Positions 1-46,423 of a stretch of DNA of 64,000 nt are shown here, piece by piece. Both the position numbers and the translations under genes were made by a program. Every line of letters starts with the position of its first letter. Position 1 is the stretch's first letter. The DNA comes from Gammaproteobacteria bacterium (GTDB lineage Bacteria; Pseudomonadota; Gammaproteobacteria; Eutrophobiales; Eutrophobiaceae): assembly GCA_041689615.1 (NCBI GenBank), contig JBDNFW010000033.1, positions 258,520 through 322,519 on the forward strand. Reading direction: 5' to 3'. The notes under the pieces are model-generated. The model saw only the letters and a list, made by a program, of their open reading frames with translations, ran no database searches and was not told the DNA's origin.

Positions 1-1326
1 CTTTTACGTCCACAAAACCAGAGTCGATCTTGTCCATCTAAATAACCAATATCACCCATACGATGATAAAAACTATCTTTTGTTCTAATTTTAGCCAGCC
101 CTGTTTCTTTATTGCGATTAAAATAAGTGCGCGTCACCTGTGGTCCTTTAACACAAATCTCACCAATCTGGTTTATAGGTAATTCAATCTCATCACTCCA
201 TTCAGAAATAATATCATCAGTAAGTTTAATGATTCTGATATCAAGATTTGCTACCGGTTGACCAACACAAACGCCCTTACCTGTGGCGGTCTCTTTAGCC
301 GTTTCATTTAAGACTTCATCACTACCAATCGAGCTTACCGGTAATGATTCGGTCGCACCATAAGGAGTGAATATCTGTACATCTTTATTCAATAATGCTT
401 TGAATTTTTTTAATACCAATGGGGAAACTGGAGCACCAGCAGATAACGCTCGTTTTAATGATGGTAATTTTATTTCTTTATTCTCAGCCCATTTACCGAC
501 ACGGTTAAGCAATGCAGGTGAACCAAACATATTAGTGCATTTATATTGCGTAATGGCATCAACGATACTTTTTGGATCTACAGAGCCTGGCTTGGTAAAG
601 TCCATTTCTGGAATAATGGATGTCATTCCCAATGCCGGCCCAAATAAAGCAAACAATGGAAAAGTAGCTAGATCAACTTCACTCGGTTGAATATTATATA
701 GTTCTTTTAAGGCCTTAACTTGTGCAGTGAAATTGGCATGCGTATAAACGACTCCTTTAGGAACACCAGTACTGCCACTTGTAAAAAGAATTGCGGCGAT
801 GTCTTCTGCTTTTGTTTCTTTTTTTATACGCTTTGATTTCTTTCCAATTGATTTTATCTTATTAAGATCGGTTAAGAAGTTATTGCTAAGAAAATTACCT
901 CCGACCAGAATATTTTTGTGTATTGTTTTTTTTGACCAGCCAAATGCAAAGCGAGCCAAATGCGCTGTTGTAACACCTATAAATGCCTCAGGCTCTGCTT
1001 CTTCCAAACACTTACCGAGATTTTTAATCCCCATACCTGGATCAACTGCAACAAGAACTGCGTCTAACTTAAACAAGGCAAAGACTAATGCAAAAAAATC
1101 CAGTCCAGGCTTGACCATCAGCACTGTTCTTGTTCCCTTCTTTATTCCATATACTTCTAAACCATTAGCAATAAGATCACTCACTTCATCTAATTGCTTA
1201 TAGGTATAGGCAACATCATAAGATGCTTTTTTTAATTTCTTTTTACTCTGTTTGACAACTGCATAAGTATTGGGTTGTTTTTTTGCCAACACCGGTAAAT
1301 AAGATGCAATATTTGCCGTAATCATG
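1..1326 (-). CDS. oleC: AMP-dependent synthetase/ligase, OleC-like (olefin beta-lactone synthetase). The C-terminus lies beyond the window start; the N-terminal Met is at 1324-1326.
   Basis: My translation of the minus strand gives MITANIASYLPVLAKKQPN... with the AMP-binding motif LFTSGSTGVPKGVVYTHAN. The gene lies immediately downstream of the oleA-like and oleB-like genes on the same strand. Confidence 0.7.
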
Positions 1327-1336
1327 AGAACTTATT

Positions 1337-2221
1337 CTAAAGAGGGTTGTTTTGAAGAAATGTTTGAATAATCGGAATCACTTCATCACCCGCGTCTTCA
1401 AGTAAATAATGTCCGGCATCAAATTCATGGAACTCAGCATTCGGCATGCGTTTTTTCCATTCATCTAAATAGTGAACATCGAAAACAAAATCATTCAATC
1501 CCCAACAAACTAGCATTGGTAATTTTGAAAAATTTTGTAAATTTTTATCGACTTGGTCAACTATTTCATAAGAAGGATGATCTTTTTCTAATGGAATATC
1601 CTCAACAAATCGTAAAACGGAAAAACGATGCACCCAGCTATCATAAGGTGCGAGATATGCATTCTTTACATCTTTACTCATTGCCTTTCTTGTAACGCAT
1701 TGGATAACACCACCTCGACAAAAAGCATTCAAGCCTTGGATTAATAAGGCTCCTATAATTGGCATACGACTTAGCTTTAATTGCCAGGGAATTTGCTTAC
1801 CTGTTGGTATATGAAAAGCTGCTGTATTAGAGATAACCAGGCGTTTTATCTTATCGGGAAACCGAGTGGCATATGCCATTCCAATCATTCCACCCCAATC
1901 ATGAACAATTAAGGTTAAATTATTATCAACACCTAGAGATGCCAGTAAAGTATCAAGATCATCAACTCGCTGCTTCAAAGTAAATTCATAATTACCCTTA
2001 GCCGGTTTATCCGACAAACCCATACCAATGTGATCAGGAACAATGCAATGGTATTTGTCGATTAATGCAGTAAAGAGATGTCGATAATAAAAGGACCAAC
2101 TTGGATTGCCATGTAACATAACAACAGTTTCAGAATGCTTTATACCTCCATCGAGATAATGCATTCGTTTACCATTAATTACTGCATAAGATGAACTATC
2201 AGGATAATCCGGAAAAGACAT
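1337..2221 (-). CDS. oleB: alpha/beta-hydrolase, haloalkane-dehalogenase-like, OleB-type
   Basis: 294 aa. HGNPSWSFYYRH motif and IVHDWGG nucleophile elbow region are typical of OleB/HLD-like hydrolases. It sits between the FabH-like and AMP-ligase genes. Confidence 0.72.
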   Translation of the reverse strand: MSFPDYPDSSSYAVINGKRMHYLDGGIKHSETVVMLHGNPSWSFYYRHLFTALIDKYHCIVPDHIGMGLSDKPAKGNYEFTLKQRVDDLDTLLASLGVDNNLTLIVHDWGGMIGMAYATRFPDKIKRLVISNTAAFHIPTGKQIPWQLKLSRMPIIGALLIQGLNAFCRGGVIQCVTRKAMSKDVKNAYLAPYDSWVHRFSVLRFVEDIPLEKDHPSYEIVDQVDKNLQNFSKLPMLVCWGLNDFVFDVHYLDEWKKRMPNAEFHEFDAGHYLLEDAGDEVIPIIQTFLQNNPL

Positions 2222-2258
2222 AAAAAATTATTGCGGCAAAAGTTGTGTTAAATGGTAA

Positions 2259-3458
2259 TTACCATTCCCAACCAAGCATCAGGCAATTAAGACCACTACC
2301 TATACCAAGAAAGCTGACGCGGTCACCTTTCTTAAGGAATTGTCTTTGTTCAGCAATTGCTGCAGTTAAAGGAACAGAAACTGTACCAATATTGCCGAGA
2401 TATTTATAAGTACTAAAGTCTTTTTCAGGGGCAATACCCAGTTCTTTTAATATCGTATCGCGATGACCTTGGCCCACCTGATGACATATCACTTTATCGA
2501 CCTGATCTCTGGCCCAGCCCATCCTGCTAAGAAAGGAACCCCATGTTTTAACGCCCAACTTGGCACCATGTTTTAGTACAGCAACTGAATCAGTCGACAT
2601 GAACTCGGATAAAGCTGCTGGTAAAGTTTCCGATGGCATAATACCCGCCAAGGCTGGTGGTAATTTGTTACTCGTCATGACGTCTTTGATTGCTGAAGGT
2701 AGCACTTCCGGATGCATCACCTGATCAATTGCAGCAAGCAATTTGTCAGGAGAAAACATCAATTCACCAAGTGCCACTGGAGATAAAGTGACACCCCAAC
2801 GACAGAGTTTATGATGCTCTGGCGCAGATTGATTAGCGCCTCCAAGTAAGCGATGTGTTTCTTTATTATCAAAAGAACCATCCGTCAGTAATACTGCCGC
2901 CGCACCAGAACCACCGGTTAGTGTTGCTAATGATCTGGAAAACATATCCATCGTTCTGTCATTCAACATACGATCTATCATGATTTCGACGATTTCACGT
3001 GAAGTCTCGCAGGAAACGACCATACCAGCACGAATCTGCTTTAATTCAATCCGGTTAGCAATATCAATAATGCCATTCATGACGCCCAAACAGGCATTTG
3101 AAATATCATAAATATTGGCATCGTTACTAATACCCAATTGAGCCGCAACAGCGCAAGCCGTTGCCGGTTCAAAGTTTTCCCGACAAACACCAGTATAAAT
3201 AAGTGCCTCAACATCTTTTGCTACAACATTAGATTGTTCCAGAGCTTTGCGAGCTGCTGCTGCTGCGCCATCAGAAAGTACATGCCCTTCTTCCCACCAG
3301 CGACGCTCACTAATACCGGTCAAAGCCTGTAATTGACCAGGAGCAATATGTAGCGTGTCATACATAGGCATGAGGCGTTCTTCTAAATCTTCGGAAGTAA
3401 TGACTACAGGGGGTAATTCGTAGCCAATCGACTCCATTTGTACGCGAGTATATTTCAT
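2259..3458 (-). CDS. oleA: FabH-like thiolase-superfamily condensing enzyme, OleA-type (head-to-head Claisen condensation)
   Basis: 399 aa. FabH-like N-terminus (SIGYELPPVVITSEDLEERL), active-site Cys context SNACLGVMNGI, C-terminal GIGSGLNCLMLGWEW. It is the first gene of an oleA-B-C order. Confidence 0.68.
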   Translation of the reverse strand: MKYTRVQMESIGYELPPVVITSEDLEERLMPMYDTLHIAPGQLQALTGISERRWWEEGHVLSDGAAAAARKALEQSNVVAKDVEALIYTGVCRENFEPATACAVAAQLGISNDANIYDISNACLGVMNGIIDIANRIELKQIRAGMVVSCETSREIVEIMIDRMLNDRTMDMFSRSLATLTGGSGAAAVLLTDGSFDNKETHRLLGGANQSAPEHHKLCRWGVTLSPVALGELMFSPDKLLAAIDQVMHPEVLPSAIKDVMTSNKLPPALAGIMPSETLPAALSEFMSTDSVAVLKHGAKLGVKTWGSFLSRMGWARDQVDKVICHQVGQGHRDTILKELGIAPEKDFSTYKYLGNIGTVSVPLTAAIAEQRQFLKKGDRVSFLGIGSGLNCLMLGWEW

Positions 3459-3467
3459 CGGTGCATT

Positions 3468-6400
3468 CTATGTGATTCGGAGCGCAAAATCTTTCATCTG
3501 ATAGATAATTCTTCCATCAACGGTCAAAAATCCATCTGCTTTGATAGTTTCCTCAGCATCATCAATTTCAGTAATAACTGCCTGTATTGTTACTTTTTCA
3601 TCTACAGGCAAGATTTGCCCCCGATATACCCATTTATGAACCTGATTTAAAGCCATACTCTCAAAAGCAAACTCGCCTATATTCAGCTCATCCTGCCAAC
3701 GTTCCCAGGCAAATACTTTCAATAATTGCATAAATGATTCTAGCCCTAACGATCCTGGCCAAACCGGATCTTCATAAAAATGCGCCTTAAAAAACCATGC
3801 TTCTTCTTTAACTTTAGCAGTTCCTTCGATAAATCCGAGATTATTTGGCCCACCTTCAGGATCATACAAACTAATATCATCAACCATTCGCATCATATCT
3901 GCAGGCATTGGCGCATCGATCGGATACACAAAGGATTTACCTCGAGATCTTTCTAATTCTGTTGGAACATAAAGTTTAGCATCGCGAATACCGATTTGGT
4001 CAGCCAGAGCTTGTTTAGAAAAAAAGCCAAAATTGGTATCGCCTTTATAGACTAATCCCTGATCAGATGTCATTTCATAATCGTAAGTCTGAATAATCAT
4101 ACCACCCGATTGTGAAACGCTGGTCATCTTTACTTTAGTAGTAAGCGTTCCTATTTCTGGTGTTACTTTTATATATTGTGTTGCCGTGCCACCCAGGTTT
4201 CTAAAGGAAATATCGACTTCGCTAGTCAAGGCAGATCCCAAATACGCAGCTAACCAACCACATGGCTGCAATGCCACTTCTAGCAATACTGCAAAAGGCA
4301 TATAGGGCTGATTGTCTTCCGTGAAATACCATTCATCCACAGGCACGTCATATTTAGCTTCGATAATTCCTCCTGCTTTTAAGACCCATTGTTCACAATC
4401 TTTAATAGAGGTTATTCGATCGAGAAATTTATATGGTGGACCAGGTAAACGTGCAATCTTACGTTCGCTATCGAATATTTTATATCTATCACCAAAAGCT
4501 TCTGAAGGTTTACCAATAGCAAAAGCAAGTATCGATTCGTTATCAAATAGAACTTGTTTTGTTTCTGCCGTATTTTTGTGTTCCCAAAGTGCTTCCAGTC
4601 TTTCTCGTTTCAAACCAGTCAATTGAACAGACATATTCTTCATCTGCACAATGGCACGATGATCGCCATACATTAAGGCATCTGCCAATACATAAGGTGT
4701 ACCATCATCACGATAACCAATTTCCTTCAAGGTAATTTCATATTGAACTGCTTTCGTTTCTTCAGTGACCTGACCTCGACATTTCAATTGACTAACTTCA
4801 CCAATGATTGGTTCGTAAACAAATTCATCTTCTTCGCCAATCCAGCCCATGCGTAACAAATAAACACGTAAAGTATGTAAACAACATTCGTACATTAATG
4901 TACCGGGCATCACTCGATCATCAACAAAGTGACATGTTAGAAACCAGTCATCAGGATGAATATCTGCTTCGCCAGTAATCTGACCTATGCCAAAACGACC
5001 CGCATTTGGATCAAGCTTGAGTATGCGATGAACCAACGTCATACGTCCGCTTGGTAAACCAACTGGATTATTTAAATCAATATTATTAAATGACTCACCA
5101 AAACAAGCTGCTAAATTACCTTCTCGTAATACAGCTAATTGTTCATCGCTATAACTCTCAACTTGCATAGCAACAAGTTGTTTCCAATCTTCAGTAAATA
5201 CGCCTTGTTGTTGCTGTTTCTCCATATTGGTTAGCACTATGCCTTTACCCGCATCTAACTCCTGTTGCGTAAAGAAACCGGCACAACCTTGTGTCATCGT
5301 TAATAACGGCTCTCCATTAACGCTCCCTTCAAAGTTAAAACGAAATAGATAGGTATCATCCTGACGAAAGAATTCTTCTATGCGAATATCGTAATGAATA
5401 GTTTCCCCTGCCTTTGGCAAAGGGCCATGAAAAGTAATTTTTGCATCTAATAATCTGTAAACAGCCAAACCTTTCGCAATATGATCAATGCCTAAATAAC
5501 CTGACAAAAATAAATCAGCTTGCCCTGCTTCTACGGCAATACAAGTTGGTATACGTCCAAGATCCAGATACCATGCGTCGTACAAAACATCATGCTCCGT
5601 TATAACGCGACCATTGGTGTTTGGATTGTCTTTCAACGAATCTGCTACACCTTCAACACTTAATATTCGGTCAGCAAGCATTAAAGGTTCATCAGGTAAA
5701 CGCACTCGCGTGGGATACTGATCAATATCGGCAAATTCAGAACCAAGCATCTTACCAATCGAGCCCACCGCAAATTCCATACATTGTTCACGATCAAATA
5801 AACAATCTATTTTATTAGGCATCTCTTGTCTTACAGTTACTTGCGATAAATCATCATCTGTATTATTTAATAAATGCATTTGCATACTGATTGCTTGCGT
5901 GATGGTTTCTGTCATTCCCTGACTAACGCGTAAAAATGTTTCTTGCGCTTCTGAACGTGCTTGTTCAGCTAATTGCATTTGTTGAATCATCGGTTGAAAG
6001 TCACCATTCGCTGTCATAGGTAATGATGTAACACTGGAAGATGTATTAATCGTTTCAACTGAACTCTGTTTTACTTTAGGTTGTATATGCTCAATAACAT
6101 CAGGTTTTGCAGGTGGTGCTGACACTTTGAAAGGCTCACCCCCCGTTTTAACACTGATAAAGTTTTTATATTCTGTTTTTTGTTTTTCCTTATTAATATT
6201 CAACTTTGAAAAATTGACATCCACACCTTCAACATAAAGTCTGGCAAGTATCTGCAATAGGTTATCAACACTGTTTTGCCCTTTAACACAAACTGCTTTT
6301 GCGTAATGTGCTTTATCTTCAAGAATTTGATCAATCATTCTAGTACATGAACCACCCGGCCCCATTTCAACAAAAAAACGTACGCCGTCTTCATAAGCAC

Positions 6401-9400
6401 TATTAATCACCTTGGTATAATCAAACGGCGCTAAAGCTTGGTCTAAAATTGAATCAGCAGCAGAATCCTGTGTTACTTCATAAGCACCACCACGTATACC
6501 ACTATAAAAAGTAACGTCTTCCGGTGGTGTAGTTTCAAAGATATGCAGATCGCGATAAGCCTTTTCAACAGGTCTAGCAACTTCACAATGCACCGTCGTC
6601 ACACCCGACAAAGGATGATACTGAGCATTAAGCTCTTTAATTGCATTATTTAATTCAGTTTTATCGCCACCAATAACGCATTCATTTGGTGTATTAATAA
6701 TCAATAGATAAACATGTTTAAACTTTTCTAAAACAACTTTGACTTTGTCTTCACTGGTATTAATCACACCTAGTGCCCAATCAATAGGCTGTTCTGTTCC
6801 CCATGCCGTTTGTACAGAAGTACAGGGACCAGCAAGTTCTTCTGTAAACAAACTGCTTTGTTGAATTCGTTTCAACATTTCATCACGCGCTGTCCATGTT
6901 CGCGTTGAGAAAAAACCGGCAGTCTCGCCAAGACTATAACCAATCACAGCATCAGGTTTAACAGCAAAACTGGCAACCACATCACTGATAAACGTTCCTA
7001 GCCACACTTGTCCAAAAATAACTTCCTCATGACTGAGCTCTTTGCCATCGTCTTTTTGCCAGAAACGTCCTTGTGCAAACTGAGATGCAAGTGTTTCATT
7101 TTCATTATTTAATTTTTCTAATACGCCAGGAAAAGCAATTCCCAATTCCTGTCCCATACCAAAGAAATGATTGCCTGAACCCGGATAGACAAAAGCAACT
7201 TTGCCATTTTCAGTCAATGGAGAAACTGAAAAATAACAGCGCCCATTATCAATGGAATTATTACTTTTTATTGCAGCAAGCGTTTCTTCGCGGGCTAGAT
7301 TAAATTCTTTCTCATCATTAATTAATAAGACAACGCGATACTTCTCTTTTTTATCTTCGACAACTTCATCAAAAGATAAACTTTGAATCTTACTAATTAA
7401 TGAGTCTTTATCATCAGCAGAAAGAGAAAATAATTTGGCCGTAATATTTTTAACATCAATATTAACCTGTGTTTGCTTTTGGGCTTGCTCTAAAACCACA
7501 CTGATACAATTACCATCAATACTCGTGCTATTAACTAAAGCCCGTCTTGCCCCTTTAACACTATCCTTTAACCAATAGCGGGCCTGCCCACTATTTTCAG
7601 CTGGCAAAATACAATGATGCAAGGCACTTACTGAACTAGCGACACTCATTAATCCATTTGCAGCACCGGAATGTCCGAGAGGAAATGCGTTTGTTACAGC
7701 ATGTTGTAAAGCAGGAATATTAATTACATCATCGCCGGCAGATTGACTAATATAATCAATTGCATCTAAATGACATTGTGCATCTGAACAGGCATTTTGA
7801 ATTGCAGTTATCATCGCAGACTGTTCAGGTTTTATATCGCAACCGCCCGCAGAGGCAACGCCAATACCTTTAATCAAGGCATAAACATTATCACCATCAC
7901 GTATCGCATCTTCATGGCGTTTTAAAACAAAAGCAGTTGCAGCATCGGCAATATTATTAATCTGTTCGACACTTCCTTTAACTGCTCTAAGATCACTAGC
8001 AATATCTACAGCACCAACAATAACTTGATCGAGTTCTTTTAGTTGTAGGGCGCGTACACCGGACTCAAGCGCACGTAAGCCTGAAGTTTCTTCAGAAGAA
8101 ACCGTAAAAGCCGGACCACCGATATGAAAAGCGCGAGCAATACGACTGGCAACAATGCCGCCTAGCGCACCCATTGTGCGATTTGCAGTTAATGCAGGAC
8201 CAAACGCTTGCTTAAGGTTTTCTATCCATTCGAATAAATCATTTCCACTTAAATGAACACCCAGTTTTTTTAGCCATTCACTTGCATATTTTTTTTGCAT
8301 CCAGCGAAAATGAAAATTCGTTGTATTTAAATCAAGTGCAATTCCAATAAACACTCCCGTTCTACATTGTTGTTCTGCATTCAGTTCTGATAACCCTGCA
8401 TCTTCTAAAGCATTTGCTGCAACTTCGAGCATTAATAATTGTTGTGGCAACATTTCTTTTAACTCTGCCGGCGGAATTCGATAGCGTCCTAACGGAACAT
8501 TAACCTCTTCAATTAAATTTCCCTGACATTCTTTACTGTCTGCTCCCCACCAATTATTAGGAGGCATTAACTTCATATCAGAACCAAACAATACTGCTTG
8601 ATCAAATTCCTGTTGATTGCTCCATGGACCTAGACGTGACTCCATGCCGACTATGGCAATATCAGTTTGTGTAGAGTTAGACTGCGTAGAAACAGGAGTC
8701 ACTTTCTCTTTCGGTTTGTACTCTTGTAAAAGTACATGTGCATTAATTCCACCAAAACCAAAACCACTTATCGCTGCGCGTCGAGGCGTATTATCTTCAA
8801 TAGTCCATGACTCTGCTTTATTTAGTACTTTAAATGGGCTGTTAGCTAAATCAATTTTATTCGAAGGAGATTCGTAATTTGCAGTTGGCGGCAATACGCC
8901 ATGTTTCATAGCCAACAAAGTTTTCATTAATGCCGCAGCACCAGCTGCTGTTAATAAATGGCCAACGTTACTTTTGACTGAACCAATAACACATTCACCA
9001 TCAACATTATGGTTTTGCCAAAGATTTTTTAATGACGTGAATTCAACACCATCACCAACCGGTGTACCGGTACCATGACATTCAATATGTTGTACCTGAT
9101 TTGGCTTCCAATCTGCCATTTCATAAGCCGATTGCATGGCACGGCCTTGTCCTTCTGAATCCGGTGACATGATATTGCCTTCAATATCATTCGAAAGACC
9201 TATGCCTTCAATCGTCGCGTAGATATGATCATCTTGCTCTATCGCGTCACTTAAACGCTTAAGCACAAAAATACCTGCTCCCTCACCGACAACAAGACCA
9301 TCAGCTTTACTATCAAACGGCGAACATCGACCTGATTTTGAAATAGCATTAAGTTGGGAAAAACCCATTTGCGTATACAAACAATCCGGCCGAGATAAGC

Positions 9401-10040: not shown

Positions 10041-10078
10041 AACTTTATTACTCGTTCAGATTTATAAGATCTAAACTT

Positions 10079-13000
10079 CTATATTGCTTCAAGACTTAAT
10101 TGATTTTTCTCAAATGCCATTTGCAAAGAACTGTCACGTACGCATTCATAACAATCGATCAATGCTATCAACTGCCCTTTACTATCGATGAACTCTATTG
10201 ATGCATTAGCCCTATGATCAGTTTTCTCATTAACTACAGTAATAATTCTTGCTCCATCTTTTGGATAGTTGCGTTGATATTGACGGTAACTGGAAATGGC
10301 CGTCGGCAAAGAAGCAATACCTCTCTCTTCAAAACTCCAGAGGATCATCATCTGGAAGGCAGAATCAAGAATTAAAGGATCAGTTAACCAACTCGAACGT
10401 ATCGGTTGGTTCATCCACGTTGATGGTTGCGGTGCTGCGTTTACATTGGCAGCAATACCTTTATCACTACAGTGAGTTACTTCTTTAATACCTTGTAGAT
10501 CTTGCCCGTGAAACAACTGTCCATTTTTATAATATTCACCTTGAGTTTTATTGTATTTCTTATTTACCACTTTTAATTGCGGTAACACATTCGTTTCATA
10601 ACTATCAGCCAAAATCATTATTGCACTGGCATGCAATAAGTCATCAGAACGTAATTCAACTGGCACTAAAGAAACATCACCTTTATGAATAATGTTGCCC
10701 GCAAGAATTCTCAAACGAATAGTTTCGTCAGCTTTTAAAGTAACACCTTTTAATACACGAAAATCGTCAAAGCCCTGAAACTGCATGCCCGGATTTAAAT
10801 GTAATGCACCATGTGCAAACCATTCGATAATAATAGCCACAGGCAAAACAGCCTGACCATTCATTACATGTGATTTTAGAAACGCATGTGTATTAACTGA
10901 AAGCTCACGTTCAAAAGCTAAAGACAGCTCGCTGTTTTCGACTGACAATGCTGAATAATTCTTTAAAGGTATTTTTTGTAAAATATTATCTGATTCACCG
11001 AGTACAACTGTCTCCACAGGTCCATCAGATTCTATCTCATTTATTAAATACTCAGCACCGGCTCTGAGTCCAATAACACCAACGCCTTCTTCTGCAAATA
11101 ATTTTTTTAATGCAGGAGTCACCATGCCACCATCCCAGGGACCCCAGTTAACTGATAAGACTTTGCAATCCTTTCTATTGTGATTTTCTTGTACTGCTTG
11201 CTTATTTAAGATTTCATTTGCCGCAGCGTAGTCAACCTGGCCTTTACGCCCCAATCTAGCTGTCGTCGATGAAAATAAAACTATCAGTTTTAATGTGTCA
11301 TTATTAGTTGCTGTCAATAAATTATCTAAACCATCTACCTTGGTAGAATAAACAGTATTGAATTGTTCTTCTGTTTTATCTTCTATCAAACGATCCGCAA
11401 GCACACCAGCAGCATGTATTATTCCAGTAACATTACCTAACTCAGCACGTGCTAAATCAATTGTATTTGTAACCGCATCAACATCAGTAACATCAACTGA
11501 GCTGTACTGAACTTTTGTACCCGTCTGTTCGATGCGTTCCAGCGTTGCTTTAATTTCACGATTAGCCAAAATGGATTGATATTGTTTTTCAAGTTCAGCA
11601 GGACGCAAATTTTTTTCTGCTTCATCCATAATCGCTTTCTTGATACTTGCCGCATCGGACAAAGATGATAACCATTCTGGTTCGTTCTTCGGTTCTGGAC
11701 TGCGGCCTAATAGTAACAAACTACATTGATATGTTTCGGCTAACTTAACCGCTACTTCAGCAGTCACGCCGCGCGCACCTCCGGAAATAACAATAAGATC
11801 GTCTTGATTTAAAGCTGTTCGTTCTTGTTTACTATCAGAGAGCGCCTCTTCTTCTAATAATAACTGACTTGCTTTTTCATCTGACAAACCGACTTCTAAA
11901 GGCCCATCGAGAAAGAGTTCATTTTGAATTAAATCAACTGATGCTGAAGCTTGATTAATATCAATCGATTTGCAATTAACATCAGACCATTCTTTATCTG
12001 CCGTTTTAATAATGCCATACAGCCCAGCCTGAACAGGATTAGTTTCAATACTGCCATTAAATCCAAAACTTCCGCCCAATGATGTTATTGAAGCAAGTAT
12101 GCCTTTTGATTTTTTTAGACTATCAGCACAACGCTGCACCAATGAAAATGTATCAAGCAAATATTGTTTATCCGCTTCTACTTTGGCGCAAATAATTAAA
12201 GCACCTAATTCATCAATTGCTGCTTGACCATTATTAATAAGCTTTGTTTTATATCCTTTTTCTTTTAATGTCGTTGCTAACTGATCAGCCAGTTCACCAC
12301 CCTCTTTCGTAATCCAGATTTCTTTATCTTTATTAAAGTCTATCTGTTGGCGAGACCCTGTTTCATCAAGTTCAGCAAGGTGAACAACACTGCGGACAAT
12401 TCTTGATTCTTTTTTGCTTTCAACGACTGCTTCTTTGACTGCTGCAACTGTTACTACTTTATTACCAGTAACAACTTGCTCGTTCATATAATCAATGATT
12501 TGTTGCAAGGTCTGTAAAGCAGCTAAATCATCCGCTGATACAGTCGGCAAGTCTGGCATTTTGTCTTGTAATGCCGATAAGATTTCCACACGTTTAATTG
12601 AGTCGATACCAAGATCACTATCCAGATTCATTTCCAGATTTAACATATCCACTGGATAACCGGTTTTATCTGCCACAACCTCTAATAATACTTCTGATAA
12701 ATTCGAATCACTTACTGGGAGTGACTGTTCTTGTTGATCAGAAGGTAATGCTTCAGAAATATTAAAAACATCAACAATCGATTGCAATGTTTGTAAGGTG
12801 GCCATGTCATCAGGACTAACTGAAGGTAATTCAGGTATGCGTTCTTGTATTGCAGATAAAATTTCAACGCGCTTAATCGAATCAATACCGAGATCGCTAT
12901 CCAGATTCATTTCCAGATTTAACATATCTACCGGATAACCGGTTTTGTCTGCCACAACTTCAAGTAGAGTATCTGCAAAACCGTTAATAACACTTGTCGT

Positions 13001-16000
13001 ATTAACAGCAACTACAACAGGTGCAGATTCCGTTTGTTCAGTGATAAATAATTCTGTTATAGATCGTAAGGTTTGCAATTGCCCCAATTCATCTGGACTG
13101 ATTGTTGGTAATTCTGGCATTGCTTCTTGCAATGCCGATAAAATCTCAACACGTTTGATCGAATCGATACCGAGGTCGCTATCAAGATTCATATCCAGTT
13201 CCAACATATCTATTGGATAACCGGTTTTTTCTGAAACGATTTCTAATAAAACTTTAGCGAAGTTGTCATCAACTTGAGTCGCTGCTGCCACAGTTTTTGT
13301 TGTAGTACTTGCGGCAATCCCCACCGGTCTACCGGCAGCAATAAATTCAACAATATGTTGCAAGAACTGGAAGGTGCCTAATTCTTCCGGATTAACAGCT
13401 TGCGACCAGGGTAATTGTTCTTGCAAGGCAGAAAGAATTTCAACACGCTTAATTGAATCAATTCCCAAATCAGTATCCAGACTCATATCGAGACTTAACA
13501 TTTCTAATGGATAACCCGTTTTTTCTGAGACGACTTTTAATAACAAATTATTTATATCAATATCCGTTGTTTCAATTGAAACTGGAGCAGACTGAATGGT
13601 TTCTTCTCTCTCTTTAACAAGCGGCGCTTTGATTAGATTATTTTTTTTTGGCTCAGATTTTATTGATTCTGTTTTTTGTGCCGGCGCACTGACTTGTGTT
13701 AGCTGTTGTACAGCTAAAGGTTGTCCTGACATTAATCGAAATTGCTGATCTAACAATGATTGAATTGATTTTTGTGCTGTCTCCTGTCCTTCAAGATACT
13801 GCTGATGTAAACGCGCGGTTTGTTCCTGCATTTTTTGTAAGGCAATAATGCTTTCCTGCGTAGCTTGTAATAAACCGCTGCTTGCAACAGTGCTAACTGA
13901 TGTTGTTACTTGTTCAGTTTCTTTAGAAGAAATATTTTTTACATCATTCGTCATGGCATTAACATTAATTACTGGTTTAGATTTTGGTTTACTTGCTGGA
14001 CGCGGCTTACGCGGCATTGTGTAATTCGCACCACTTATTGCTATGGTCATTACAGGTTTTACATCTTTAGCCGGTCTTTCCATGGTTGAACATGATGCAT
14101 CCCATTTATTAAGTTCAACTTGTTGTCCATTAACTGCTAACGTTGCTAACACAAGAGCCAAATCATATTGACCTTGCTTCTTGCCGACTGAGGCATCAAT
14201 AGCAATAGTAGTAATAGGTTTGTCTGCAAGAATTGAATTAATTAATCCGGTTAATATTTTTCCCGGGCCTACTTCAACAAAAGTCGTAATACCTTCTGCA
14301 TATAGTTTTTCAACCTGTTCGACAAAACGAACAGGCGATGCTAATTGATATGCTAATAGTTGTTTCGCTGCGTCAACATCTTTTGGATAAGTGTCAGTCG
14401 TTGTATTGGATAAAACCTGATAATTGTTTTTTTCGAACTTAAATGGCGCCAGTGCTTCAGCAAATGGTTTCGCAGCATCAGCAACAAATGAACTGTGAAA
14501 TGCTGCTGCTACAGGTAATTTAATTGCACGTATTTTTTCAGCTTTAGCAACTTTTGCAAAAGCATCCACTTGATCTGTTGAACCTGATAACACAACCTGT
14601 GTTGGTGAGTTATGATTTGCAATAACCAGTTCTAACTTATTTTTTTTCAATAAGGACTCTACTTGTTCATAAGGCGCAACGACTGCCAGCATAGAACCTC
14701 TATCACCTTCACCTGTAGCCATTAACTCACCACGAATTCGTGATAAGCGATGCAATGTTTCAGCGTTATACATGCCTGCTGCCGATAGTGCAGTTAATTC
14801 ACCATAACTATGACCAATCGCAGCTTTTGGCTTAACAGAAAAATAATTTAATACTTCAAGCGCACCAAGACTTACAGCACCAATGGCAGGCTGTGCATTT
14901 TGCGTTTGTCGTAAAGTTTCTTCCTGATGTTTTTGATCAGCTTTGGAAAAAACAGGAATAGGATAAAGCACATCACCCAAGCTTTCTTTTCCTAGGCTTT
15001 CTTTACCCGTCGCTTCTATGAAAATATTGTTTGCTTGTTCTAATACATTTAAAAACTGAGGAAACTGACAGGCTAGATCACGACACATGCCAGTGTATTG
15101 CGAACCTTGTCCCGGGAAAACAAAAGCAATGTTGTCGTTGTTTCTTTCAGAACTGTATGCAACACCATCAGGTCTTTGCCATGCTGATTCAGATGAAGAT
15201 GTTAATTGCTTTTTAATATCAGCAATAAACTTTTGTCTATCTTCATTTGATTTTTCAATGACTATCGTTAAACGATGAGCTGCATCGCTTTTAAAACTTT
15301 GACATGAATCATAAGCAAAAAACCTGAGTTCATTCCATGAATCAAGAATGGTAGACTCTGGTAACTGTTTTATTAATTCTTCTTTTGAATCTACGCTTAA
15401 AGCAATAATTAAAACAGTACCATCCCATTCAATTTCGGTTTTCGTTTCTTCAGCTTCTTCAAGTACACAATGAAAATTGCTGCCGCCAAAACCAAACGAA
15501 CTTAATCCCGCACGACGCGGAGTAGATTGTGTTTTTAACCATGGACGTTTCACGGTATTGAGATAAACAGGTGAAGTACCGGGATTAATAATTTCTAATG
15601 GTTCATCTACTTTAATACTCGGTGGTAAAACTTTATATTTTAAAGCCATGGCCGTTTTAATCAGTCCGGCAACACCGGCTGCAGCTTTGGTATGTCCGAT
15701 CATCGATTTTACTGATCCAATCGCACACCATGTTTCACCATCATTATCTTGTCCATAAACACCGGACAACGCAGTTGCTTCAACAGCATCACCAACTGAT
15801 GTACCTGTACCATGCGCTTCAACTAACTCAATGCTTCTTGGAGTAACATCCGCTTCACGATAGGCATTCCATAATGCTTTGGTTTGACCTGTAGCACTCG
15901 GTGCATAAATGGCATTACCTCTACCATCAGACGAAGAACCGATACCACGTAATACCGCATAGATTTTATCGTTGTCACGTTTAGCATCGTCAAGTCGTTT

Positions 16001-16843
16001 TAATACAACGGCACCAATGCCTTCACCTAAAATTGTTCCATCGCCTTCTTTAGCAAACGGACGACTATTACCTGTTGGCGATAAGGCCGGTGTTTTACTA
16101 AAACACATATACATAAAAATATCGTTAAAGGTATCGACACCACCGGTAATAGCCATATCAACTCTGCCGGCACTCAGTTCCATTGAAGCAAGGTGTAATG
16201 CACTTAATGAACTCGCACAAGCTGCATCAACAACACAATTGGTGCCACCAAAATCAAATCTATTAGCAATACGACCGGCTGCAACATTACCTAATAAACC
16301 AGGGAATGAATTCTCTTGCCAGGGCACATAACCATCAGCAATGCGTTGTACGACATCTTCTGCTGTTTCAGGATCTATTCCAGCATCGGCTAATGCTTTT
16401 CGCCATATTGGATGACCGAGTCGAGCACCTAACGGAATCACTAATTCTAATGTACCGGTCACACCCATAATGACGCTGGTGCGATCACGATCAAATTCAC
16501 GACCATCACCTGCATCTTTAGCAGTGGAATAATTCGCATCTAATAATGCCTGACGCGTAACCACCATACCTAATAATTGTGTGGTATCCGTCGCTTCAAT
16601 ATTGTTCGGACTTAGTCCGTATAACAGTGGGTTAAATTCTTGCGCATTAATAAAACCACCACGTTTAGCATAAGTCATATCTGGTGCAGTTTTATCCGCA
16701 TCAAAATAATCTTCCGGTTTCCAATGCGTATCAGGTATATCAGTTATCGCATCAACGCCTTCACGAATATTGGTCCAATACTCTTGAGGATTATCTGCTT
16801 TAGGAAATAGACAACCAATACCAACAATAGCAAGAGGCTTCAT
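10079..16843 (-). CDS. pfaA: PUFA synthase PfaA: KS-MAT-4xACP-KR-DH
   Basis: 2254 aa. KS motif VVDAACASSLSALH. MAT motif GHSYGE. Four ACP repeats (LGIDSIKRVEILSAL). KR Rossmann motif ISGGARGVTAEVA. PKS-type DH domain at the C-terminus. Confidence 0.92.
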   Translation of the reverse strand: MKPLAIVGIGCLFPKADNPQEYWTNIREGVDAITDIPDTHWKPEDYFDADKTAPDMTYAKRGGFINAQEFNPLLYGLSPNNIEATDTTQLLGMVVTRQALLDANYSTAKDAGDGREFDRDRTSVIMGVTGTLELVIPLGARLGHPIWRKALADAGIDPETAEDVVQRIADGYVPWQENSFPGLLGNVAAGRIANRFDFGGTNCVVDAACASSLSALHLASMELSAGRVDMAITGGVDTFNDIFMYMCFSKTPALSPTGNSRPFAKEGDGTILGEGIGAVVLKRLDDAKRDNDKIYAVLRGIGSSSDGRGNAIYAPSATGQTKALWNAYREADVTPRSIELVEAHGTGTSVGDAVEATALSGVYGQDNDGETWCAIGSVKSMIGHTKAAAGVAGLIKTAMALKYKVLPPSIKVDEPLEIINPGTSPVYLNTVKRPWLKTQSTPRRAGLSSFGFGGSNFHCVLEEAEETKTEIEWDGTVLIIALSVDSKEELIKQLPESTILDSWNELRFFAYDSCQSFKSDAAHRLTIVIEKSNEDRQKFIADIKKQLTSSSESAWQRPDGVAYSSERNNDNIAFVFPGQGSQYTGMCRDLACQFPQFLNVLEQANNIFIEATGKESLGKESLGDVLYPIPVFSKADQKHQEETLRQTQNAQPAIGAVSLGALEVLNYFSVKPKAAIGHSYGELTALSAAGMYNAETLHRLSRIRGELMATGEGDRGSMLAVVAPYEQVESLLKKNKLELVIANHNSPTQVVLSGSTDQVDAFAKVAKAEKIRAIKLPVAAAFHSSFVADAAKPFAEALAPFKFEKNNYQVLSNTTTDTYPKDVDAAKQLLAYQLASPVRFVEQVEKLYAEGITTFVEVGPGKILTGLINSILADKPITTIAIDASVGKKQGQYDLALVLATLAVNGQQVELNKWDASCSTMERPAKDVKPVMTIAISGANYTMPRKPRPASKPKSKPVINVNAMTNDVKNISSKETEQVTTSVSTVASSGLLQATQESIIALQKMQEQTARLHQQYLEGQETAQKSIQSLLDQQFRLMSGQPLAVQQLTQVSAPAQKTESIKSEPKKNNLIKAPLVKEREETIQSAPVSIETTDIDINNLLLKVVSEKTGYPLEMLSLDMSLDTDLGIDSIKRVEILSALQEQLPWSQAVNPEELGTFQFLQHIVEFIAAGRPVGIAASTTTKTVAAATQVDDNFAKVLLEIVSEKTGYPIDMLELDMNLDSDLGIDSIKRVEILSALQEAMPELPTISPDELGQLQTLRSITELFITEQTESAPVVVAVNTTSVINGFADTLLEVVADKTGYPVDMLNLEMNLDSDLGIDSIKRVEILSAIQERIPELPSVSPDDMATLQTLQSIVDVFNISEALPSDQQEQSLPVSDSNLSEVLLEVVADKTGYPVDMLNLEMNLDSDLGIDSIKRVEILSALQDKMPDLPTVSADDLAALQTLQQIIDYMNEQVVTGNKVVTVAAVKEAVVESKKESRIVRSVVHLAELDETGSRQQIDFNKDKEIWITKEGGELADQLATTLKEKGYKTKLINNGQAAIDELGALIICAKVEADKQYLLDTFSLVQRCADSLKKSKGILASITSLGGSFGFNGSIETNPVQAGLYGIIKTADKEWSDVNCKSIDINQASASVDLIQNELFLDGPLEVGLSDEKASQLLLEEEALSDSKQERTALNQDDLIVISGGARGVTAEVAVKLAETYQCSLLLLGRSPEPKNEPEWLSSLSDAASIKKAIMDEAEKNLRPAELEKQYQSILANREIKATLERIEQTGTKVQYSSVDVTDVDAVTNTIDLARAELGNVTGIIHAAGVLADRLIEDKTEEQFNTVYSTKVDGLDNLLTATNNDTLKLIVLFSSTTARLGRKGQVDYAAANEILNKQAVQENHNRKDCKVLSVNWGPWDGGMVTPALKKLFAEEGVGVIGLRAGAEYLINEIESDGPVETVVLGESDNILQKIPLKNYSALSVENSELSLAFERELSVNTHAFLKSHVMNGQAVLPVAIIIEWFAHGALHLNPGMQFQGFDDFRVLKGVTLKADETIRLRILAGNIIHKGDVSLVPVELRSDDLLHASAIMILADSYETNVLPQLKVVNKKYNKTQGEYYKNGQLFHGQDLQGIKEVTHCSDKGIAANVNAAPQPSTWMNQPIRSSWLTDPLILDSAFQMMILWSFEERGIASLPTAISSYRQYQRNYPKDGARIITVVNEKTDHRANASIEFIDSKGQLIALIDCYECVRDSSLQMAFEKNQLSLEAI
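12560..13560 (-). repeat. four tandem ~280-bp intragenic repeats encoding the ACP domains of pfaA
   Basis: Near-identical DNA blocks recur at about 12600, 12880, 13160 and 13445 (gaatcgataccgag.tcgctatc.agattcat...ggataaccggtttt). Confidence 0.85.
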
Positions 16844-16854
16844 CTGAGTACCTC

Positions 16855-17090
16855 CAAAAATGCACTTTTCCCGCGATCGCCGCGTCGGCTCCGTACTTGA
16901 ATACTCACAGAGTACGATGTTCTCATGTATGTTTTATACATTGCGATTCTCGGCAATTGCTCCCGGCATTGCTCTACCTCCTGCATCCATGCAGTCGTCC
17001 GCGTATGCATCCTTGCACTTATGTACAGGGATGTACTGTATACCGGTTTTGCAGGAGCAAAAACCGGACACGAAAAAATCACTATTTCTT
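16855..17090. repeat. intercistronic repeat element copy A (pfaD/pfaA spacer), flanked by 11-bp inverted repeats CTGAGTACCTC (16844-16854) and GAGGTACTCAG (17091-17101)
   Basis: Shares the core aaaaatgcactttt...atactcacagagtacgatgt.ctcatgtat with the copies at 49991-50120 and 32480-32592. The flanking inverted repeat contains the pfaA SD (GGAGG). Confidence 0.6.
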
Positions 17091-17128
17091 GAGGTACTCA
17101 GTTTTTTAATGTGTTTCTTTGACATAAC

Positions 17129-18817
17129 TTACTCAGATAAATAACTCTTAATTGTTTCTTGTTGCATAGGATGGAATTGCGTTAATGCAACAGGAAGTTC
17201 AACACCTTGCTTAAGCAAACCATTAATTCGATATAAAACAGCAGCACCAAATAAAATATTCATTGCCACAGTCACTGCATTTCTATTATTTGTTTCAGAT
17301 AAAAAAGTTTCGCGCGTCCATTCATTAAACGCTCCCATTGCTGGGCCACACCAAACTTGATAATCAACTTGGCGATCTTCAACGCCGGCATTTGCCCAAC
17401 GTGAAGACAGTCCTAAATACCATCGAAAAATTAATGCCATTTTATGTTTTGCATCTTTATGCGCTTTTTCAACTTGACGCGGATCTCGTTCAGTAAAAAA
17501 TTCTTCTGTCTTTTGCCATACTTCAGCTAATGACATTTTAAAAATTGTTTTTTCCAGATTCGCTTTTTCTGTTTCAGAAATTTCTTCTATCGATCCGTAT
17601 TTTTTATAAATGTCATAAAGCTTATTACCGCGCATCGCAAACATGGTGCCGCGTTTTAATACTTGTAACTTCACACCCATTTCAAACATATCTACTGCTG
17701 GTGCCATAGTGACGTCAGCTTGTTCTGCATTGGCTAACATTTCTCTAACAATGTCAGAGGAACCTGATTCTTTGCAGGCTTGATTAACAGTACCGGTAAC
17801 AATGTAAGCCGCACCCATAGCAAACGCACCTAATGCTGAAGCAGGTATTGCAATCCCTCCGGCAGCACCAACACGCAGTGGTTTTTCATAATTATGTTTT
17901 GCCTGATATTGATCGCGTAGTGATAACATCGTTGGTAATAATGTAATAGCAGGTCGATTGTCTGTATGACCACCCGAGTCAGCTTCGACCGTTAAGTCTT
18001 GCGCCATCGGAATATGTTTGGCCAAGTCTGCTTCTTCTTTTGTTATCGAACCCTGCTCTAATAATTTTTCCAATAATTTTTCAGGTGGAGGACTAAACCA
18101 TTTGCTTGCAAGCTCTACCCTCGATGCCTTAGCTATGATCCTATTAGGAACAATAATATTACCCTGCTTATCTTTATGAATTCCTTTCACTCGATAACGT
18201 ACAACTGGCAAAGTCAGTTTCATATAAGCAGATGTTTCAACCAGTGTAACTCCGTATTTTAAATAGAGATCAACAACCGCATCTTCATGTCCTATTTCAT
18301 TCGGGCTATAAATAAGGTTAAAGCAAAATGTTTTATCGCCTAAGGAAGTTTGCAGACGTTTAATTGCTGTTTCTATTTCAGTTAAAGACAAACCCGCTGC
18401 ACCGAATGATGCCAACATGCCTTCGCTTGCTAACGCTTCAACCAATTCAACAGAAGCAATGCCATTTGCCATTGAGCCTGCCATATAAGGATAATCAATT
18501 TGATAATCCTGACAAAAATTCTGATCACCTAAGGCTTTAATGGTTTGTGCCGAAGCAATGCCACGTAAACGATACTGTTTGTCGTCTTTTTGATAGTCAT
18601 CACCCTGACTATCAAACTGAATAGATCCACCCAAGGCAATTGCAGATCTGGATTTATTTTCAACTATACAAAATGGCACATCTAACTGATAAAGCTGTTC
18701 AGGCAATTTTTCCAAATCAGATAGACTAGCGCGACTATCCGATTGCCAAACATTTTGAGAATGACGCTTTGTTTCCGTCGAACGAGACGGACTAATAATT
18801 TCTGGTATGGAACTCAC
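17129..18817 (-). CDS. pfaD: PUFA synthase enoyl reductase PfaD (nitronate monooxygenase-like fold)
   Basis: 562 aa. YPYMAGSMANGIASVELVEALASEGMLASFGAAGL region is typical of PfaD-type ER. It lies upstream of and co-directional with pfaA. Confidence 0.85.
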   Translation of the reverse strand: MSSIPEIISPSRSTETKRHSQNVWQSDSRASLSDLEKLPEQLYQLDVPFCIVENKSRSAIALGGSIQFDSQGDDYQKDDKQYRLRGIASAQTIKALGDQNFCQDYQIDYPYMAGSMANGIASVELVEALASEGMLASFGAAGLSLTEIETAIKRLQTSLGDKTFCFNLIYSPNEIGHEDAVVDLYLKYGVTLVETSAYMKLTLPVVRYRVKGIHKDKQGNIIVPNRIIAKASRVELASKWFSPPPEKLLEKLLEQGSITKEEADLAKHIPMAQDLTVEADSGGHTDNRPAITLLPTMLSLRDQYQAKHNYEKPLRVGAAGGIAIPASALGAFAMGAAYIVTGTVNQACKESGSSDIVREMLANAEQADVTMAPAVDMFEMGVKLQVLKRGTMFAMRGNKLYDIYKKYGSIEEISETEKANLEKTIFKMSLAEVWQKTEEFFTERDPRQVEKAHKDAKHKMALIFRWYLGLSSRWANAGVEDRQVDYQVWCGPAMGAFNEWTRETFLSETNNRNAVTVAMNILFGAAVLYRINGLLKQGVELPVALTQFHPMQQETIKSYLSE

Positions 18818-19107
18818 TGTATTTAATCAATAAACTCTTCTGAATATGTAATGGCGGAAAGGACAATGCTTATTTATTTACATCCATCTGTTCTGATTGT
18901 AATGTGCGCGTCCTGAACAGCCCTAATTATTGAATAATATCATTTTTTTCGGGCAAAACCTTGTAGCATCGATGCTCTAAACGATTAAGATTTAGTGACT
19001 ACTTGTTCAAAATGAATGCTGAATTTAGTTATTTTGATGTGATTAACTAAAAAATAAAACCACAAAACATACTAAACCATTGTTTTTATAAGAGATATTT
19101 ATTTTTC

Positions 19108-20175
19108 ATGAAATCCAGAGAAGAATTTCAAACCAAACTTGATGACCTTGCCTATCAAAACAAGATTTTGCAGCATGTCTCTCGAACTTTTGCCTTAACT
19201 ATTCCGCAATTGCCTGAACCATTAAGCACGGTCGTAGCAAATGCCTACCTTTTGTGTCGTATTGCCGACACGATCGAAGATGATAAGAGCATGTCGGCTG
19301 AACAAAAAAAGGAATCTGCCGAGCTTTTTATCAAAGTTGTTAAGGAAAATGCTGAAGCTGAAGCATTTGCCGAAACCCTGTTTCCATTATTGTCACCGAC
19401 AGCAACTGAAGCTGAACATGATCTGATTTCCAATACGTCTCCTGTAATTAGAATTACTCACAGTTTCAATCAACGCCAACGCGCTGCTCTAGAACGTTGT
19501 GTCAAAATCATGGCCGATGGCATGGTAATGTATCAGGATGCTGAAACCCTTGATGGCGTTTCCGATCAGAGGGATATGGATCAATACTGTTATTACGTTG
19601 CGGGCGTTGTTGGCGAAATGTTGACTGAACTTTTCTGCGATCATTCGCCTGAAATCGATGCACATCGTGATGAGATGATGAAATTGGGAGTGTCATTTGG
19701 TCAGGGTTTGCAAATGACCAATATATTGAAAGATATCTGGGAAGATCATGAGCGCGGAGCTTGCTGGTTACCTCGCGATGTATTCGAAAAATACGGTATC
19801 GATATTCGTCATAAAGTACCAGGTAAAATGGGTGAAGGTTTTAATGAAGCTTTAATAGAATTGCTCGGTGTTGCCCATGCACATGTCTATAACGCTTTGC
19901 GCTATACTTTAATGATTCCCGAAAAAGAAAAAGGATTACGAAAATTCTGTTTGTGGGCCTTGGGTATGGCGGTATTAACTCTAGAAAAGATCAGACGACA
20001 GCCTGATTTCACGGAAGGTCAGCAAGTCAAAATCAGTCGTCGCAGTGTTAAAGTCACCCTCTTTTTGACAAGTCTTTTCGTTGGCCAAAATAGAATATTA
20101 AGTTATCTTTTCCAATTCAGTGGACGTCGTTTGCCTATGGCAAATATTCATGCGAAACTCTGCCAAAATCAGTGA
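19108..20175 (+). CDS. sqs: squalene synthase, single-enzyme eukaryote-like type
   Basis: 355 aa. SRTFALTIPQL...YLLCRIADTIEDD and YCYYVAGVVGEMLT match squalene/phytoene synthase motifs. It is the first gene of the hopanoid operon. Confidence 0.8.
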   Translation: MKSREEFQTKLDDLAYQNKILQHVSRTFALTIPQLPEPLSTVVANAYLLCRIADTIEDDKSMSAEQKKESAELFIKVVKENAEAEAFAETLFPLLSPTATEAEHDLISNTSPVIRITHSFNQRQRAALERCVKIMADGMVMYQDAETLDGVSDQRDMDQYCYYVAGVVGEMLTELFCDHSPEIDAHRDEMMKLGVSFGQGLQMTNILKDIWEDHERGACWLPRDVFEKYGIDIRHKVPGKMGEGFNEALIELLGVAHAHVYNALRYTLMIPEKEKGLRKFCLWALGMAVLTLEKIRRQPDFTEGQQVKISRRSVKVTLFLTSLFVGQNRILSYLFQFSGRRLPMANIHAKLCQNQ

Positions 20176-20274
20176 TATACATGACTATAACGCTGAAACA
20201 ACAAGGAGAATAAGGCGGCTTTCGACAGGGCAGTATGGTCTATCTGACTTCTTGCCCCACCTGTATTAAATAAC

Positions 20275-22931: not shown

Positions 22932-23001
22932 CCTGGCCGCTTGTTATAAAATCTAAGCTGGTTTATAAGGAAACATAATCCCCCACTAGAAAGATATTAA
23001 T

Positions 23002-23748: not shown

Positions 23749-23763
23749 TCGATATAACTAAAA

Positions 23764-29293: not shown

Positions 29294-29513
29294 CCTTACG
29301 CTTAATCAAGAAACCTAATACTTTTGCAAAAATGACCATTGCGACACAAGTTAGAAAACCATAGATCGCATGAAATACAAAAAAACCTTCTACTTTAAAA
29401 TGTGGATGCAACACCACGAAAACTTCGGCCAACACAGTTAATGCCAGAATAACAATGGCACCTATCCATAATTTTTTAATTGATGACTTTCTATAGAACC
29501 AGTTTTGATTCAT
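29274..29513 (-). CDS. small 2-TM membrane protein (possible Mrp accessory subunit)
   Basis: 79 aa, hydrophobic. Overlaps its neighbours by 4 and 20 nt, which suggests translational coupling. Confidence 0.35.
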   Translation of the reverse strand: MNQNWFYRKSSIKKLWIGAIVILALTVLAEVFVVLHPHFKVEGFFVFHAIYGFLTCVAMVIFAKVLGFLIKRKDDYYDM

Positions 29514-30976: not shown

Positions 30977-30978
30977 GA

Positions 30979-39298: not shown

Positions 39299-39318
39299 GT
39301 TTACCTACATTGAGTTTA

Positions 39319-39987: not shown

Positions 39988-40005
39988 AAATAATATCTCT
40001 TTAAA

Positions 40006-46411: not shown

Positions 46412-46423
46412 AATTCCTTACTC

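Follow-up and report, generated by a model that had tools for sequence, protein, structure and literature searches.

The genes of the Pfa (polyunsaturated fatty acid, PUFA) synthase and those of the Ole pathway for head-to-head olefin synthesis are arranged in tandem in Geobacter bemidjiensis Bem, whose pfaD-A-B-C-oleABCD-pfaE cluster has a demonstrated C31:9 product (Yoshida et al. 2016, PMC4882568). Shulse and Allen (2011) described ole genes as "often linked" to secondary-lipid clusters of this sort and defined a Type I cluster with a pfaBC fusion in Geobacter, Desulfuromonas, Pelobacter, and Gemmata (PMC3098273). In Photobacterium profundum SS9, the pfa and ole genes form adjacent operons; in Shewanella, C31:9 is formed from 16:4 chains of the Pfa synthase that OleA condenses, and one synthase serves both products; co-expression experiments established the Pfa-to-hydrocarbon link in vivo and indicated that OleA probably draws its substrates directly from the acyl carrier protein (ACP) domains of the synthase (Allemann et al. 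2019, PMC6463001). Regarding the end product, clusters with oleB lead to an olefin, while the absence of oleB is the hallmark of beta-lactone clusters (PMC7064751). Here, we analyzed a stretch of 64,000 nucleotides (nt), referred to as the window, from contig JBDNFW010000033.1 (GCA_041689615.1; positions 258,520 to 322,519). The window begins with a pfa-ole cluster that is a member of the known Type I kind, located in an uncultured marine gammaproteobacterial lineage, and that likely encodes a pathway devoted, wholly or for the most part, to making a long polyunsaturated olefin. The original prediction, made from the sequence alone, had implied that the fusion of the two gene sets was new, which does not hold, since the tandem cluster was published for G. 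bemidjiensis (PMC4882568) and the linkage in PMC3098273. Likewise, its idea of an acyl-ACP hand-off to OleA had already been proposed from experiments (PMC6463001). Its remark that the two sets are unlinked is correct for Shewanella but is not the general case.

According to the open reading frame (ORF) listing and the translations, the six genes of the cluster are all situated on the minus strand within positions 1-18817. The first, pfaD (17129..18817, 562 amino acids (aa)), encodes the stand-alone enoyl reductase of the Pfa synthase and is followed by pfaA (10079..16843, 2254 aa; KS-MAT-4xACP-KR-DH (PS-DH)) and by a gene for a pfaBC-type subunit (3468..10040, 2190 aa; KS-CLF-AT-DH(FabA)-DH(FabA)), called pfaC hereafter. 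Downstream, oleA (2259..3458, 399 aa) encodes a predicted head-to-head Claisen-condensing thiolase with an insert of ~63 residues, oleB (1337..2221, 294 aa) a predicted subfamily-III haloalkane-dehalogenase-like beta-lactone decarboxylase, and oleC (1..1325) a predicted olefin beta-lactone synthetase, of which the N-terminal 441 of ~551 codons are present, as the window edge cuts the gene. This is the gene order, on a single strand, that had been predicted. The "short spacers" of that prediction were found at four junctions, namely pfaA-pfaC (38 nt), pfaC-oleA (9 nt), oleA-oleB (37 nt), and oleB-oleC (11 nt), but not between pfaD and pfaA, where the spacer (16844..17128, minus strand) measures 285 nt and contains an inserted repeat element. 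Given the junctions of 9-38 nt, co-transcription is plausible. On the other side of pfaD, an AT-rich intergenic region of 290 nt (18818..19107) separates it from a divergently oriented squalene synthase gene and presumably holds the promoter of the pfa-ole genes; the same divergent layout is kept in the related loci L087, L088, L089, L093, and L090-92. A consensus scan of the window listed 43 promoter-like sites against 58.5 expected from shuffled sequences, nothing above chance, and 12 terminator-like sites against 13.7 expected; neither kind of site was listed on the minus strand of the pfaD-pfaA spacer.

The assignment of the synthase genes was based on NCBIfam and Pfam models. PfaD scored 638 bits with the PfaD family model TIGR02814 (cutoff 449) and matched the Pfam domains NMO and FabD_helical_ins, and its relatives of 556-562 aa align across 100% of its length. 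PfaA reached 1689 bits with TIGR02813 (cutoff 1010), comprises ketoacyl-synt, Acyl_transf_1, four PP-binding stretches, KR, and PS-DH domains, and is 86% identical to the PfaA of L087. In the pfaBC-type protein, two ketoacyl-synt stretches, an Acyl_transf_1 domain (residues 950-1252), and three FabA stretches were identified; FabA models scored 206 bits, and the acyltransferase part (residues 935-1271) resembles the PfaB family with 103.5 bits, under the cutoff of 144. The cluster thus combines PfaA and PfaD proteins above their model cutoffs with tandem ACPs and FabA-type dehydratase domains, as expected of a Pfa (PUFA-type) synthase, and its pfaD, pfaA, fused pfaBC (KS-CLF-AT-DH2), and linked ole genes are those of a Type I cluster. 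Neither a separate pfaB, nor an AGPAT acyltransferase domain, nor a thioesterase gene was found among the cluster ORFs and their Pfam domains. Additionally, no dedicated phosphopantetheinyl transferase (PPTase, pfaE) was detected among the 45 scanned window ORFs of at least 120 aa, five other listed ORFs not having been scanned.

Concerning the first ole gene, its product is, by sequence and predicted fold, an OleA-type head-to-head condensing enzyme. It scored 484 bits with NF006720 (cutoff 285), and when compared by sequence to solved structures, it matched the Xanthomonas campestris OleA with E = 8e-58, versus 1.9e-18 for the best FabH. Residues C123, H326, N356, and E97 align to C143, H285, N315, and the OleA-specific E117 of X. 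campestris, and these catalytic Cys, His, Asn, and Glu residues are invariant or nearly so across 28 diverse homologues. An AlphaFold model built from an alignment of diverse homologues (predicted local distance difference test (pLDDT) 87.7, predicted template modeling score (pTM) 0.85) was searched against the PDB with Foldseek. The top 28 matches were Xanthomonas OleA (E = 1e-42 to 1e-37, versus 1e-29 for FabH), i.e., 27 X. campestris OleA chains and 3fk5, an X. oryzae entry deposited as FabH. The target-normalized template modeling (TM) scores to Xanthomonas OleA were 0.93-0.96, with FabH and PqsD ranking next, and the identity in the structural alignment with X. campestris OleA was ~32%. 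Smith et al. (2020) regard an OleA as high-confidence when at least two of oleB, oleC, and oleD are in its neighborhood (PMC7064751); in the window, oleB and then oleC directly follow oleA, at 37 and 11 nt.

The clade-specific insert of ~63 residues (residues ~223-286; window 2600-2790, minus strand) lies between the LCRWG and FM(S/T)TDS motifs and holds three loosely repeated LPxAhxxhM-like segments. All of the 120 closest homologues (392-399 aa) have it, as do the Phycisphaeraceae metagenome-assembled genomes (MAGs) L014 and L016; it is shorter in Schlesneria and Gemmataceae and absent from the examined Geobacter and Isosphaeraceae loci and from X. campestris. The AlphaFold confidence across the insert is 42-66, which gives no reading of its fold; it may be helical or disordered.

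The two remaining ole genes are in keeping with this assignment. OleB scored 151-157 bits with haloalkane-dehalogenase models, under their cutoffs, and none of the matches is described as OleB. Its pentad N39, D108, W109, D244, and H271 is invariant in 12 cluster-linked homologues from Gammaproteobacteria, the Geobacter group, Planctomycetota, Elusimicrobiota, and Verrucomicrobiota; the X. campestris OleB is likewise a subfamily-III haloalkane-dehalogenase-like protein with a pentad of Asn, Asp-Trp, Asp, and His (PMC10503415). Homologues that are 80-88% identical bear the orthology-based JGI name cis-3-alkyl-4-acyloxetan-2-one decarboxylase (EC 4.1.1.114), which is a label only. The truncated OleC scored 579 bits with NF006754 (cutoff 478) and 537 and 513 bits with the OleC models NF045785 and NF045786, the next family following at 184 bits. 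Over its 441 residues, the window protein shares 87% identity with the complete OleC from locus L003 (551 aa), which reached 664 and 653 bits with the two OleC models, ~3 times the score of the next family (202 bits). Taken together, the family models, the catalytic residues, and the fold match of OleA support the OleA-, OleB-, and OleC-type identities that had been proposed. Another gene considered was the HpnA-like epimerase gene at 26232-27371 as a misplaced oleD, which was rejected, as its product scored 504 bits with the HpnA model versus 125 and 102 bits with the OleD models.

The region past the start of the window was read in relatives and not on the source contig. In L003/L004, whose OleA is 97% identical, pfaC is followed by oleA-oleB-oleC (551 aa)-oleD (328 aa)-PPTase (240 aa), and the same oleABCD-PPTase series follows pfaC in L002, which has an 88% identical OleA and is located on a 2.4-Mb contig. 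The relative's OleD scored 489 and 428 bits with two OleD models versus 150 bits with HpnA, and the PPTase situated after oleD in the relatives is HetI-like and pfaE-like. L087, on the same contig as L003, contains the hopanoid genes and then, divergently, pfaD-pfaA-(3 small ORFs)-pfaC-oleABCD-PPTase. From these relatives, oleD and pfaE are strongly expected on the contig of the window. The three small ORFs of L087 (18629-20381, equal to L003 1459-3211) lie between pfaA and pfaC, where the window has 38 nt; two of them (231 and 155 aa) run in the opposite direction and one (76 aa) in the same direction, and none has a Pfam match. When the window is compared to L003/L087, OleA (97% identity) is more conserved than its neighbors PfaA, OleB, and OleC (86-87%).

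Species-representative genomes were scanned with an alignment of nine OleA sequences, and the 80 closest OleA loci were retained; neighbors were counted by tblastn with the window proteins, the denominators being the loci with enough flanking sequence. In 50 of 62 loci, oleA was preceded by a pfaC homologue ending no more than 300 nt away, so that the pfa-ole arrangement is far from chance, and pfaA was directly upstream of pfaC in 44 of 54. Downstream of oleA, oleB was found within 400 nt in 64/70 loci, oleC in 47/55, oleD in 44/55, and a PPTase in 20/55. Of the ten loci that lacked pfaA directly before pfaC, seven are gammaproteobacterial MAGs. The surveyed loci span Planctomycetota, Desulfuromonadales/Geobacter, Gammaproteobacteria, Elusimicrobiota, and Verrucomicrobiota. 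The closest one belongs to the gammaproteobacterial MAG "Thiotrichaceae bacterium UBA973" (OleA 90% identical), and the planctomycete groups are Phycisphaeraceae, Schlesneria, Gemmataceae, and Isosphaeraceae. These planctomycete groups include the isolates Aquisphaera insulae, Singulisphaera sp. GP187, and Tundrisphaera sp. TA3, the Geobacter and Desulfuromonadales loci include Pelotalea chapellei DSM 13688, and Ca. Uabimicrobium amorphum, Elusimicrobiota, and Limisphaerales were also recovered. The nearest OleA and PfaC relatives fall in the planctomycete and Geobacter groups, i.e., those named for Type I. Of all links in the cluster, that between pfaC and oleA is the best conserved in this OleA clade, because a split form keeps pfaC-oleABCD-PPTase together, apart from pfaD-pfaA. 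The survey thereby gives a number to a linkage stated only qualitatively in the literature and identifies the pfaC-oleA junction as its conserved core. In the split form, observed in the same gammaproteobacterial clade, pfaD-pfaA remain beside the hopanoid genes, with epimerase genes after them (L090-L092), and pfaC-oleABCD-PPTase is situated at another locus in L002, L007, L008, L010-L013, and L017; in L002, this locus adjoins a resistance-nodulation-division (RND) efflux system.

The pfaD-pfaA spacer is longer in the window than in its relatives, with 285 nt versus 2-93 nt. It contains an element of ~258 nt (17101..16844, minus strand) bounded by an inverted repeat with arms of 18 nt, of which 16/18 positions are complementary, and 222 nt between them. 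The spacer folds at -96.9 kcal/mol (z = -5.65), and none of 200 shuffled sequences was as stable. The element seems to have inserted into the opening codons of pfaA: the pfaD stop codon is immediately followed by ATG TCA AAG AAA, which corresponds to the beginning of pfaA in L093 (ATG TCT AAG AAA), and the present pfaA start of the window aligns to Met10 of the L087 PfaA. The Shine-Dalgarno sequence GGAGG before this present start codon lies in the 3' arm of the element, and the cluster is probably still functional. The spacer was also considered as a riboswitch or other known RNA, which was rejected, since Rfam yielded nothing at gathering scores and chance-level matches only (E > 3).

The element contains a two-hairpin unit, without a match in Rfam, whose 25-nt core, CCGGTTTTTGCTCCTGCAAAACCGG, is located at 17043-17067. 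A metagenome scan with the terminal inverted repeat (TIR) pattern of the element gave no matches, but the inner 25-mer did match: metagenome contigs with a GC content of 38-70% contain at least 120 exact copies of it (loci L094-L213). The second hairpin of the unit covaries (GCCATCCATGGC / GTACATCCTGTAC / CGCCATCCATGGCG). At least 41 of 122 copies are situated at one fixed site within IS91-like transposase reading frames, and the excision of 49 nt from these transposase copies restores ..AAM joined to TWAQRLKRVF... At least 10 copies lie within TIR-bounded elements like that of the window, in unrelated contexts, and L118 bears two tandem copies of the unit, 49 nt apart.

The gene complement suggests the following route. 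A PPTase would prime the four ACP domains of PfaA, on which PfaA, PfaBC, and PfaD would iteratively build a cis-polyunsaturated acyl chain, the FabA-type dehydratase/isomerase domains putting in the cis double bonds. OleA would join two chains head-to-head to a 2-alkyl-3-ketoacid; since the cluster has no thioesterase gene, OleA probably receives these chains from the synthase directly. The ketoacid would then be reduced by OleD, closed to a beta-lactone by OleC with ATP, and decarboxylated to a cis-olefin by OleB, whose presence points to an olefin and not a beta-lactone. We infer that a direct hand-off from ACP to OleA would fit a cluster without a thioesterase, a separate pfaB, or an acyltransferase, and these absences also argue, weakly, against a main role in the supply of PUFA for phospholipids. 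The product would most likely be a very long polyunsaturated hydrocarbon, plausibly C31:9 as in G. bemidjiensis and Shewanella, the chain length itself not being readable from the sequence. As to how the pathway works, neither the survey nor the cluster opens a new question.

The dedicated polyolefin pathway of the original prediction is the best reading of the locus, based on gene identities, catalytic residues, and conserved synteny, and several observations weigh against it. The contig portion analyzed starts inside oleC, and oleD and pfaE are not visible on it. The insert of 285 nt could transcriptionally separate pfaD from the remaining genes, this being the sole junction where a single operon could fail. 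OleC does not reach the equivalog cutoffs of NF045785 (850) and NF045786 (900), with 537/513 bits in the window and 664/653 bits in L003, and the relative's OleD, at 489 bits, falls short of its equivalog cutoff of 580. Because of these scores under narrow NCBIfam cutoffs, OleC and the OleD of the relatives lie outside the curated Shewanella or Xanthomonas subgroups, OleC still being OleC-like. The layout also varies from relative to relative: L001 lacks oleBCD beside oleA and has transposase debris there instead, genes are inserted between oleA and oleB in L006 (four genes), L007, and L015, and pfaD-pfaA are found at a separate locus in some (L002, L090-92).

The most serious competitor is a Pfa synthase that mainly makes membrane PUFA, similar to eicosapentaenoic acid (EPA) or docosahexaenoic acid (DHA), from which the Ole enzymes siphon an intermediate as in Shewanella, so that the pathway would not be dedicated. 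The score of PfaA with the omega-3 PfaA family model, far over its cutoff, the single Shewanella synthase that feeds both products (PMC6463001), and the relatives with pfaD-pfaA apart from pfaC-oleABCD would all agree with it. We nevertheless consider it unlikely, as the cluster is without a separate pfaB, an AGPAT domain, or a thioesterase gene, pfaC adjoins oleA in 50/62 loci, and the cluster is of the same kind as that of Geobacter, with its reported C31:9 product. Less probable still is an end product other than an olefin, namely a condensed lipid such as a beta-lactone or a ketone; actinobacterial homologues of OleA, OleC, and OleD do make beta-lactones (PMC7064751), and OleC and OleD score under their equivalog cutoffs, but an oleB with an intact pentad lies between oleA and oleC, and it is the absence of this gene that marks beta-lactone clusters (PMC7064751). 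An incidental adjacency or an assembly artefact joining unrelated gene sets in a metagenome-assembled contig could be imagined for an uncultured source genome with a repeat element inside the cluster; it is exceedingly improbable, because the order recurs in independent ENA, JGI, and NCBI assemblies and is seen in isolate genomes as well as on contigs of 1.5-2.7 Mb. A dedicated olefin pathway is therefore the reading we retain.

Back-to-back with pfaD, a hopanoid gene set occupies 19108-27371 on the plus strand, composed of genes encoding a squalene synthase (19108-20175), a squalene-hopene cyclase (20275-22221), HpnG (22218-22931), a PhyH-type dioxygenase (23002-23748), the HpnN transporter (23764-26388; TIGR03480, 842 bits, cutoff 752), and HpnA (26232-27371; 504 bits, cutoff 368). 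In the loci listed above (L087, L088, L089, L093, and L090-92), the divergent pairing of hopanoid genes and pfaD is kept down to 71% PfaD identity, and HpnA is absent from L090-92. A literature search found no paper linking hopanoid with pfa/ole clusters. It is conceivable, albeit doubtful, that the pfa-ole genes and the hopanoid operon form a conserved neutral-lipid island co-regulated from one 290-nt region, in which OleA docks on the PfaC/ACP part as a structural basis for the hand-off; such docking is considered because pfaC, not pfaA, stays with oleA in the split forms and because the OleA of this clade bears the insert.

The rest of the window contains a chemotaxis cluster (36732-48932, minus strand) encoding CheA, CheW, CheR, CheD, CheB, a CheY-like receiver, a STAS protein, and a ParA-like ATPase, along with a globin-PAS-HAMP methyl-accepting protein (42154-45336, minus strand, 1060 aa) and a separate globin (45381-45824, minus strand, 147 aa), which suggest oxygen sensing or aerotaxis. 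Two sets of Proton_antipo_M (Mrp/NuoLMN-like) genes are located at 27623-32463 and 53171-63955, both on the minus strand; the second runs into a gene for a NuoG-like subunit (60954-63335) and probably represents complex I. Between them, at 49322-52302, genes encoding SCO1, PCuAC, phosphatidylserine decarboxylase, and DUF454 proteins are found. No tRNA genes and no Rfam families were found across the whole window.

When compared to the known systems, the cluster is most readily set beside that of G. bemidjiensis, with which it shares the gene order, the fused KS-CLF-AT-DH2 subunit, the 5' position of pfaD, and the ole genes directly downstream; the Geobacter-group homologues are 53-56% identical in OleA and 42-49% in PfaC. 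The cluster differs from that system in its host, which is an uncultured marine gammaproteobacterium, in the insert of ~63 residues within OleA, and in the divergent hopanoid operon beside it. The tandem pfa-ole kind thus extends beyond the Geobacter and planctomycete groups to a marine gammaproteobacterial lineage that is uncultured but occurs in many metagenome assemblies, and this lineage is therefore likely to produce polyunsaturated hydrocarbons such as C31:9. Shewanella oneidensis and S. pealeana likewise have both enzyme systems, pfaABCDE and oleABCD, but without linkage between the two sets; their pfa genes run pfaA-B-C-D with pfaB as a gene of its own, and EPA is a further product of the synthase. 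The 80 closest OleA loci included none from a Shewanella-group genome. In P. profundum SS9, pfa and ole are physically linked on the chromosome as in the window, but as two operons with the thioesterase gene pfaT between them, whereas the window has junctions of 9-38 nt and no thioesterase gene. The X. campestris OleABCD system, which has been characterized both biochemically and structurally, resembles ours in the OleA fold and catalytic tetrad, the OleB pentad, and the homology of OleC and OleD; unlike the window, it uses ordinary fatty acyl-CoA from a type II fatty acid synthase and has no adjoining Pfa synthase. Finally, the beta-lactone clusters for lipstatin and nocardiolactone share the chemistry of condensation, reduction, and lactonization, with homologues of oleA, oleC, and oleD but without oleB, which in the window is present and intact.

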